A DNA stretch of 64,000 nt from Eledone cirrhosa. Lineage: Eukaryota. This document shows, piece after piece, positions 18,471 through 28,284 of this stretch. Position 1 is the first letter of the stretch; each line of letters begins with the position of its first letter. The notes beneath the pieces are model-generated. The model was not told where the DNA came from. It saw only the letters and a program-made list of their open reading frames with translations, and did not search any database. A program made the translations under genes and the position numbers. The stretch lies in NCBI GenBank assembly GCA_964016885.1, contig OZ024743.1, positions 159,030,001 through 159,094,000 of the forward strand, given 5' to 3'.

Positions 18471-18616
18471 CTTCTTATATATATATATATATATATATAT
18501 ATATATATATATATATATATATATATATATATATATATATATATATATATATATATATATATATATATATATATATATGAAATATAAGAATCAAAGAACT
18601 GTTCAAAACATTATTG

Positions 18617-18663
18617 TGCTTACAGCTGTTTCCTCCAAACCGAGGTTTGGATTCTTCGGAGCA
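18617..18663 (-). ncRNA. Hammerhead ribozyme, 3' copy of the left Naiad unit
   Basis: Reverse complement of 28001-28047. Confidence 0.85.
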
Positions 18664-20106
18664 ATTTATTAATGCATGGACAGTTATATGACCTCCTTTT
18701 CAGCCGAGAGACATACCAATACATATTCAAACATTGATACATATTCAAACATTGTGGGTCAACATTCATTACAAAATTTAGAGTGGCAGTACACACTTCG
18801 AGATTACATTTATATTAATAGGTACAATCAAAAATCAAAGATATAGGTTAAAGTACAACATGAAGATAAGTGGTTATATAGTGCAAATGTTATATGTGTG
18901 GCACGCATGTGCGTCTTGTTTATATAGTGTGGCAGAGAGATATGTGTGGTAGAGGCACTTAGGTAGGTAAATAAGAGTGTTAGGTTGGTAGATCTGGTGG
19001 CAAAGTCTTTATATGATTGATGTAGTCTGTGTGTGGAGAAATATTATAAGCATTAAAGATAGTGCAAGCATTAAAAGTGTTATAAGTATTGGAGATGCAC
19101 AACGCAGGGATGTCAAGTAATTCATGTACTTCGGCATTTTCATGATCAAGGGAGTGTATATTTCGATTATATGCCTTTCACATAATCCACGACAATCCAG
19201 TTAGAGATCGTAGTCTGGTGTTCTTTAGTTCGATACAGGAGGTTGTTACGTTTCGAGAGACGCCATTGAATACCGGAAGTGTGTGTGTGGCTAAGGGGAG
19301 TTAATGCATGCGGGGAGGTAACTCTGGGGTTTCTATATCTAGCCATTAAAATGTGTCCCAATATGGACCCTAAATTCTATGGTGAGGTGCACCCTCCAAG
19401 AGAGACTTTTAAAGCATAAAGTGTACTAACTATAGAGTAGTTTAACTAAATTATGCTGAAGGTGATCATATTATTATTAAGGTGGATTAACCCATCTTAA
19501 GGTGCTACAAATGGAAATTATAGATGATGAGCGAGGATTCTAAATTAATGATCTCTGTGGTTGTAGTCTGCTCATATGACCAGGCGCGGTGATTGCAGGA
19601 TTGCTTCAGGACCCAATGATCTCTGGTAAGATCTGGGTCATCGCTTGCTACATTGGATGTCGAAAGATAATCGTCCCCAGGCAGGCCAAAGGTCAATCCG
19701 CAGTCCTCGCGACCCCTCTCTGACCGTCAGATCATCCATATACGTACAACCCGCACGGCAGTTGCATTGCATTCACTCACTGCGCTCAGCAGCCCGGTCC
19801 TACTGGTCAACAGCGCTACTCGATTAAATCATTTTACATCTGTCTAAGGAAGGTGTTTCCTCTGCCCAACACCATCCAACCGATCAATTCATGCTCAAAT
19901 TACCCTTAGAGCGGTGTAGTGCCGTCCAGGTGGGTGGATGTTGTCACACCTGCCGTAGAGGTATAAATGGGTATTTTCCCTGCGAAGGGTTCCAGATGGA
20001 TGTCGTTGTTTGTGTTATAATGGATCAGCTAGTGTTGGGTATGTAGTATAGGGTGTGTCTCTGGTGTTTGATGCTAGATGTGGTGTTAGGTTCCAGTCCG
20101 ACATTG

Positions 20107-27095: not shown

Positions 27096-28000
27096 GACTA
27101 CAACCACAGAGATCATTAATTTAGAATCCTCGCTCATCATCTATAATTTCCATTTGTAGCACCTTAAGATGGGTTAATCCACCTTAATAATAATATGATC
27201 ACCTTCAGCATAATTTAGTTAAACTACTCTATAGTTAGTACACTTTATGCTTTAAAAGTCTCTCTTGGAGGGTGCACCTCACCATAGAATTTAGGGTCCA
27301 TATTGGGACACATTTTAATGGCTAGATATAGAAACCCCAGAGTTACCTCCCCGCATGCATTAACTCCCCTTAGCCACACACACACTTCCGGTATTCAATG
27401 GCGTCTCTCGAAACGTAACAACCTCCTGTATCGAATTAAAGAACACCAGACTACGATCTCTAACTGGATTGTCGTGGATTATGTGAAAGGCATATAATCG
27501 AAATATACACTCCCTTGATCATGAAAATGCCGAAGTACATGAATTACTTGACATCCCTGCGTTGTGCATCTCCAATACTTATAACACTTTTAATGCTTGC
27601 ACTATCTTTAATGCTTATAATATTTCTCCACACACAGACTACATCAATCATATAAAGACTTTGCCACCAGATCTACCAACCTAACACTCTTATTTACCTA
27701 CCTAAGTGCCTCTACCACACATATCTCTCTGCCACACTATATAAACAAGACGCACATGCGTGCCACACATATAACATTTGCACTATATAACCACTTATCT
27801 TCATGTTGTACTTTAACCTATATCTTTGATTTTTGATTGTACCTATTAATATAAATGTAATCTCGAAGTGTGTACTGCCACTCTAAATTTTGTAATGAAT
27901 GTTGACCCACAATGTTTGAATATGTATCAATGTTTGAATATGTATTGGTATGTCTCTCGGCTGAAAAGGAGGTCATATAACTGTCCATGCATTAATAAAT

Positions 28001-28047
28001 TGCTCCGAAGAATCCAAACCTCGGTTTGGAGGAAACAGCTGTAAGCA
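28001..28047 (+). ncRNA. Minimal type I hammerhead ribozyme (CCGAAGA variant), predicted cleavage after GUA at 28043
   Basis: TGCT-CCGAAGA-a-TCCAAACC-tc-GGTTTGGA-g-GAA-ACAGCTGT-A-AGCA; palindromic stem III as in PLE dimeric hammerheads. Confidence 0.85.
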
Positions 28048-28284
28048 CAATAATGTTTTGAACAGTTCTTTGATTCTTATATTTCATATAACTGCTCTGT
28101 AAATCAGCTGATGTTTTTACATTGAGCTACTTAACTTACTGGTAATAAGGTAGTAATACATTACTGCCTACCACTATTTAGGGTGTGTGTAAAATACTTA
28201 CAACTGCTTAAGGTTTTGTGTTTACATAACCATAAATAGTATAACTAATACTATATATATATATATATATATATATAAGATATA

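Follow-up and report, generated by a model that had tools for sequence, protein, structure and literature searches.

The 64,000-nucleotide stretch of Eledone cirrhosa DNA analyzed here (the window) contains a mirror-image insertion of 9,681 bp at 18574..28254, delimited by self-BLAST and base-level comparison and bounded by (TA)n at both ends. The left target tract is found at 18476..18577, where a few AT letters overlap the end of the arm, and the right tract at 28255..28277. Positions within the element are given as unit coordinates (u, the window position minus 24007), and the period of the unit is 4,199 bp. The inverted arms at 18574-22656 and 24008-28090 match over 4,083 bp with 99.951% identity. 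As the initial annotation had described, both encode the same 819-amino acid protein, in open reading frames (ORFs) located at 20107-22566 on the minus strand and 24098-26557 on the plus strand. Only one difference between the arms had been noticed, at 27436; there is a second one, silent, at 24292/22372, and each arm carries one C>T change that is missing in the other.

Taken at full length the arms are unequal. The left arm (18574..23912, minus strand, 5,339 nt) adds a pseudo-LTR to the unit at 18574-22656 and reads, on the minus strand, u2944-4247 and then u49-4083; the right arm (24008..28254, plus strand, 4,247 nt) is u1-4247. The pseudo-LTR (22609..23912, minus strand, 1,304 bp) matches 26951-28254 and includes a hammerhead-like motif at 22812-22865, a site that we call A with its hairpin at 22736-22769, and a second site, B, at 22609. 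Both outer ends are 3′ ends abutting (TA)n, as had been proposed, but they are not the same 3′ end. Site A at u4083 (equivalent to 28090) terminates the left arm, and the right arm goes on to u4247 (site B, 28254), 164 nt further, so that a 164-nt "tail" (28091..28254, plus strand) is present at the right end only. Likewise, the two 5′ ends face the middle of the insertion but do not meet there: a 99-nt filler (23911..24009, plus strand), identical to the ORF sequence at 25767-25865, lies between them with a 2-nt overlap on each side. Hairpin B (24061..24077, plus strand; copy on the left arm at 22587..22603, minus strand) consists of GCTC, a C-G pair, a 2-nt bulge and GAGC, and is located 5 nt past site B in the tandem context and 20 nt ahead of the ATG. 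Hairpin A (28094..28127, plus strand), 3 nt past site A, has GCTC, a U-A pair, an inner stem, a 2-nt bulge and GAGC. A type I hammerhead-like motif at 27998..28051 (plus strand; mirror copy at 18613-18666) has a U4C core (CCGAAGA at 28005), a palindromic stem III and a predicted cut after 28043. The flanks (5.5 kb on the left and 5.2 kb on the right) are not mirrored and have one 44-bp repeat match in common.

The 819-amino acid protein has reverse transcriptase (RT) motifs at residues 36-400, including YRDD at 354, and the best Foldseek matches of its AlphaFold model (pLDDT 82.7) were telomerase RTs (E 6e-9). A TERT-related RT in a single ORF, a pseudo-LTR (1,304 bp) with an inverted partner arm and a one-sided tail (164 nt) are features of Penelope-like elements (PLEs). 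Pfam returned neither an RT nor a GIY-YIG match for this protein (RVT_1 was found in one of 27 aligned family members), and there was no GIY-YIG domain among the whole-protein Foldseek matches. Because Pfam gave no match, the predicted C-terminal GIY-YIG endonuclease (residues 678-806, after the RT) was assigned by motif: VIYSC at 697 and YVGST at 712 lie on two predicted strands, and R, E and N motifs follow. The RT region contains RWR at 38-40 and DKT at 123-125 (RW[KR] in 26 and DKT in 25 of the 27 aligned proteins). CNCRANRTC at 678, the CxCx5C linker, is followed by CNLC (CxxC) at 776 and CQH (CxH) at 804, and each of these three patterns is conserved in 27/27 proteins. By eye, the GIY-YIG core has no internal Cys pair. 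Two Asn-rich stretches, at 482-539 and 624-674, were modeled with low confidence.

Judged by these motifs, the element belongs to the Hydra group of PLEs and not to Naiad, the label given in the initial annotation. Members of the Hydra clade such as Hydra-1_Obim share the RT to GIY-YIG order, RW[K/R], DKT, CxCx5C, CxxC, CxH, and the (TA)n target, which is also the target in the window, and have a hammerhead near the 3′ end, where the window element has its hammerhead-like motif (PMC8557442, in the parts available). The Hydra proteins in the available part of its supplement show the same motifs by eye. The window family differs in its 4.2-kb unit (not <3 kb), in its 819 amino acids with Asn-rich stretches, in the U4C hammerhead core, in the 164-nt tail and in its hundreds of young copies. 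Both this unit (4,199 bp) and that of a sister family in the same genome (about 4,011 bp) exceed 3 kb, a length that the accessible text of PMC8557442 treats as a Hydra tendency and not as a criterion. Naiad elements resemble the one in the window in their (TA)n preference, pseudo-LTRs, inverted 5′-truncated partner, body of 3.4-4.4 kb and presence in octopuses, but they have an N-terminal endonuclease (EN), CxC between EN and RT, DKA, CCHH in the endonuclease, usually an IFD and no canonical hammerhead, according to the same portion of that source. Here, the EN motifs are C-terminal to the RT, the first Cys is found at or after residue 205, the tripeptide is DKT and the Cys positions match the Hydra pattern. 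Neptune, Nematis and Penelope-Poseidon were rejected as well: they have CCHH and DKG, with a CX2-5CxxC linker in Neptune and Nematis, versus DKT and CxCx5C in the window protein. The search for homologues returned 399 proteins; the best 120 of the 399 were 31-41% identical and the top ones with a name were from Argonauta hians, which makes an octopod host likely. A quick tree, built with no labelled Hydra references, grouped the 819-amino acid protein with the sister families and the Argonauta proteins (SH-aLRT 97-100).

The initial annotation had anticipated a young insertion of an active family, and the genome supports a young element whose family is abundant and mostly intact. The 3.0-Gb assembly contains 651 exact junctions between the A end and (TA) and 854 between the B end and (TA), controls giving 0, and the 819-amino acid frame is kept in 18 of the 19 best full-length copies. 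The family was also abundant in the read runs X1-X5. Two differences in 4,083 bp, at a rate of 0.0036 per million years borrowed from octopus (PMC13282606, as far as its text was available), would date the window insertion to roughly 70,000 years (Poisson range about 8,000-250,000). It may be younger, because both differences could be errors of the RT or of the assembly. Rarity of the structure was not supported: the two-ended insertion is the default of the family, and insertions with two ORFs recur. The same double-armed design, with one A and one B end, was found at C4:30.48 Mb (9.0 kb, two intact ORFs), C23:27.74 Mb (15.8 kb, three intact ORFs) and C1:56.97 Mb (9.5 kb, one intact ORF). Including the window, over-unit double-armed insertions make up 4 of the 36 loci compared. 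The sister family, whose 737-amino acid protein is 39% identical to the window protein, has four such insertions among 58 scored matches, from 8.6 to at least 13.2 kb, one of which enters an assembly gap. A head-to-tail array of the sister family with three intact ORFs (13.3 kb, L169-L170) was also observed at G000:C7:78.45 Mb. The window insertion is very likely a real, young insertion of the Hydra clade. Within the family its design is a common one, its length falls toward the upper limit of the sizes found, and taken alone it is not exceptional.

All exact matches to the A or B end in C1:1-250 Mb were taken, a sample blind to insertions having neither end. They defined 94 loci, of which L078 was dropped as a duplicate of L049; six extra pairs were not counted. 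Among the 93 insertions there were 58 A/B, one B/B, no A/A, six in which only a trace of the opposite end is left (one of them doubtful) and 28 others, one of which (L094) later proved to be A/B. The proportion of 58/59 has a p value of 2e-16 against a free choice of site. In the sister family (96 A and 100 B matches), all 66 facing pairs were A/B by coordinates alone. One A end and one B end per insertion is thus a rule with almost no exceptions. Insertions with a single recognizable end (27/93) are older overall (median identity 96.2% vs 98.6%), and 7 of 47 young insertions lack an A/B pair. The median lengths of the two arms were 455 and 421 nt, and most arm junctions have an overlap of 1-11 nt, some having fillers. 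The A arm extends more than 30 nt further in the 5′ direction than the B arm in 30/58 insertions, and the B arm runs past site A in 42/58. Letters of the start site were recopied beside the TA at 9/72 A ends (11 regular expression matches, 2 of them discarded as false) and 2/80 B ends, as would be expected if initiation slips.

Sites A and B are located 3 and 5 nt, respectively, ahead of bulged GCTC..GAGC hairpins, which are conserved and whose inner pair covaries. The stem of hairpin A in the sister family is ACTC/GAGT, and the TA-joined ends of three other families in the genome and of three metagenome loci lie 0-8 nt ahead of such a hairpin. The survey was extended to 78 metagenome loci; 62 of them matched close to the start of the protein, and 43 of the 62 were non-redundant with 230 nt upstream. 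Two or more hairpins were found upstream of the ORF in 22 of these 43 Hydra relatives, one in 11 and none in 10, compared to two or more in 41/8,600 shuffles (0.5%) and in 7/298 windows internal to ORFs. Because the pattern is self-complementary, a count of reverse-complement hairpins was useless as a control. Among the matches listed, a hammerhead followed by two hairpins and then the ATG is the usual arrangement. The outer GCTC/GAGC stem hardly varies. The first inner pair past the 2-nt 3′ bulge, which was not selected for since the search fixed the outer four-base stems and the next three letters, is Watson-Crick in 49/49 distinct hairpins from 30 loci (34 C-G, 15 U-A), a count that ignores kinship and comes from loci chosen for having the motif. 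Shuffling gave a mean of 38.6 (0/10,000 shuffles as high), and slid registers gave 0, 0 and 5 of 49. The identity of the pair follows position: U-A in 14/21 distal hairpins and C-G in 27/28 proximal ones. No account of paired hairpins or of strict A/B pairing was found in the literature searched, older subscription papers lying outside it. The available parts of PMC8557442 do not describe twin hairpins or the A/B rule, and those of a retrozyme preprint (10.64898/2026.07.22.740005) and a ribozyme review (PMC6765202) contain nothing on paired hairpins or strict pairing.

The hammerhead-like motif with U4C is present in all 177 aligned arms of the window family; this change reduces hammerhead activity in vitro (PMC3088659, in the part available). 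An Rfam search of 22600-28400 at E values up to 5 produced no match, hammerhead included, and the minimum free energy fold of the motif forms stem II only. The sister-family hammerhead has a canonical core. Cleavage as the origin of the arm 5′ ends was considered and rejected in that family, where 30 loci (5 of them without a usable match) showed no cluster at the cut site at -57. In the window family, a few arm ends fall near u4034-4043, but they are unconvincing as hammerhead-cut ends. An older relative in the window (7214-7488, minus strand), 66% identical to the 3′ end of the window family and with many similar copies in the genome, has the same U4C core and hairpin A.

The two arms of an insertion also have a common origin. 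In 49 insertions with an arm overlap of at least 100 nt, 182 family polymorphisms were shared between arms and 13 were discordant, a comparison that favors "shared" because the variant had to occur in at least two other loci to count as shared and at least three to count as discordant. The distance within an insertion was smaller than the median distance between copies in 44/49 insertions. The arms in the window have 12 minority letters in common and are 0.05% apart; the nearest other copy is at 0.15% and the median at 0.56%. Therefore, the arms of one insertion derive from one source copy. Gene conversion between inverted arms could be an alternative equalizer, and one RNA molecule and two transcripts of one locus are indistinguishable by sequence. 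In the sister family, 21/66 pairs are 443-521 bp long. Of these, 20 were fetched, and 15 had both arms ending 190-206 nt upstream of site A. This shared 5′ boundary follows a pyrimidine tract and lies beyond the hammerhead site at -57, which is uncut. We read the boundary as the place where both RTs ran off the RNA at a shared 5′ end, although a short palindrome at this position may help to draw the joint there. The 480-bp class is unlikely to stem from one amplified mini-element, with about 16 different junctions in 20 copies; one junction recurs four times and another one twice, on two sequence variants.

In LINE-1 twin priming, the second target strand primes on the RNA and the inverted arm is joined by microhomology; the second priming site is variable and the arms overlap little. 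In the window family the second site is fixed, the route is the default, and the arms duplicate the same template. We consider it probable that the arms of the window insertion were made recently by a programmed form of twin priming at two sites of one RNA. Hairpins A and B of a single uncut transcript would be occupied by two RT-endonuclease molecules, the (TA)n would be nicked on both strands, and each 3′ end would prime at one site through a microhomology of a few AT letters, sometimes slipping and recopying the first 7-10 nt. Both RTs would copy toward the RNA 5′ end, the B-primed RT displacing the A-primed cDNA, and the cDNA 3′ ends would be joined by microhomology-mediated repair. The 164-nt "tail" would be the mere distance between the two start sites. 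The window copy would be a case from the upper tail of the size distribution, in which both RTs ran for more than one unit; at its junction, the left cDNA end likely copied 99 nt of the right cDNA (u1760-1858) and then annealed at u1. Since the arms exceed one unit, the template must have been a multimeric RNA or a circle, or else the RTs must have jumped (for example, to the 3′ pseudo-LTR); tandem sources exist at C23 and C3:133.89 Mb. The idea that the A-primed RT blocks the B-primed one, as happens in L1, was rejected as a rule, given that 42/58 B arms pass site A. As far as we can infer, the proposal of the initial annotation that both strands of the TA tract primed cDNA and that the cDNAs were joined at the 5′ ends is supported.

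There are in vitro precedents for parts of this scheme in the available portion of a study of a Poseidon PLE, PAc of Anolis (PMC11167929). Its enzyme cut and extended the two target strands, RT began internally at two sites lying at the tail boundaries, and hammerhead cleavage was dispensable. The Poseidon sites differ in being 30-40 nt apart, inside the ORF and on one AC-rich stem-loop, with no strand preference seen; those of the window family are upstream of the ATG, each ahead of its own hairpin, and one is used at each insertion end. Two observations count against priming on a single RNA with strand-specific pairing. Both strands used the same start sites in the Poseidon assay (PMC11167929, same portion), and in the 42/58 insertions where the B arm passes site A the same stretch was copied twice, which requires strand displacement. 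The latter difficulty does not exist if both strands prime on two separate RNAs of the same source locus held in one particle, the closest alternative to the "two cDNAs" of the initial annotation. This would also explain the shared variants, and run-off at a common 5′ boundary fits any transcripts of one promoter. However, as each RNA carries both sites, A/A and B/B pairs would be expected unless the particle is asymmetric, and same-site pairs were only 1/59 and 0/66; we regard two RNAs as rather unlikely.

Programmed priming on one RNA was also weighed against models in which the ends or the arms arise in another way. The hairpins might act in DNA, with the endonuclease cutting a palindromic intermediate at A and B so that the ends mark resolution cuts and not the points where RT began. 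The accessible text of PMC8557442 ascribes the tail to EN-mediated resolution, that of PMC11167929 relates that EN recognition of Penelope DNA depends on the tail, and the inner pairs are almost all Watson-Crick, so RNA is not singled out. Yet start-site letters are recopied at both A and B ends, and RT starts have been mapped directly to the tail boundaries in another clade (PMC11167929, same text), which makes resolution improbable. A single priming event, in which the first cDNA or an antisense template folds back or primes itself to give the second arm, follows a model in the part of PMC3846280 available, where head-to-head palindromic junctions are described in rotifer PLEs. It would account for the 9/58 junctions in which the ends of the two arms are at most 15 nt apart, palindromes being frequent there. 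As a general route it is largely refuted: an A arm that extends further 5′ than the B arm, as in 30/58 insertions by more than 30 nt and in the window by 1.1 kb, is not a copy of the B arm, and since sub-unit A arms have no tail, the B arm is not a copy of the A arm. Fold-back copying is accordingly given a very small probability. A fold-back chimera of the assembly or of long reads at the window locus, which the initial annotation named as a danger, is the least probable of all. No bridging of the junctions at 23912 or 24008 was found among the read pieces listed (24 of 311, from four runs and perhaps other individuals). On the other hand, the chimera is unlikely because the flanks are not mirrored and the ends are the two different sites of the family, obeying the A/B rule; in addition, each arm has one private C>T, the junction filler has microhomology, and seven similar long insertions (three of the window family and four of the sister family) are found elsewhere.

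The origin of tandem and inverted PLE insertions with a one-sided tail is presented as an open question in the available parts of PMC8557442, and the steps after initiation are left unvalidated in those of PMC11167929. With about even chances of being right, we propose that elements of the Hydra clade, and perhaps all endonuclease-bearing PLEs, integrate by obligate programmed twin priming. The hairpin pair between the hammerhead and the start codon would place two subunits of the RT-endonuclease on a single RNA, and at its own site each subunit would prime one strand of the cut TA tract. If so, twin priming would explain the one-sided tail, the head-to-head inverted pseudo-LTRs and the double-ORF insertions, and the hairpin pair would be a minimal cis signal for a two-ended insertion. 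More than the single copy, it is the rule for the family and the twin hairpin that matter, since they make the question directly testable by experiment. The family offers the rule (an A end and a B end in each insertion, both derived from the same source) together with many intact young copies for testing, the conserved cis element predicts both end positions from sequence, and correct boundaries are now given for an abundant family that Pfam does not recognize.

Other structures were observed in the course of the analysis. At L123 (G000:C1:245726324-245734324), about 148 nt of unrelated GC-rich sequence is caught between the A and B arms. L058 (G000:C1:41413992-41421992), an older insertion whose arms join u223 to u3921, is an internally deleted, non-autonomous form that keeps its A and B ends. 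The ends at L118, G000:C3:133.89 Mb and G000:C1:56.97 Mb consist of repeated short copies of the site-A start, reminiscent of repeat addition by telomerase. Within the window, the TA run to the right of the insertion also holds a small two-ended inverted insertion of another hammerhead element (28277-28805; canonical CTGATGA core), whose ends differ by about 65 nt. A fold-back insertion at 28857-29014 has a short arm of 39 nt and a long arm with an ACTC..TTGAGT hairpin at 28943. The family of L281/L283, a further Hydra family, has copies at 171-707, 29062-29227, 44859-45060 and 29300-30264, the first three being two-ended, with the A and B ends of that family; a two-ended insertion of the sister family lies at 1378-1802. 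A 5′-truncated Penelope-like ORF of another clade (4431-6212, minus strand; Pfam RVT_1, C-terminal GIY-YIG) is located beside a long TA/TC tract, and more GIY-YIG-like and LINE-like RT fragments were recognized by eye in the ORF list at 30503-31192, 52981-56024 and 57584-58102.
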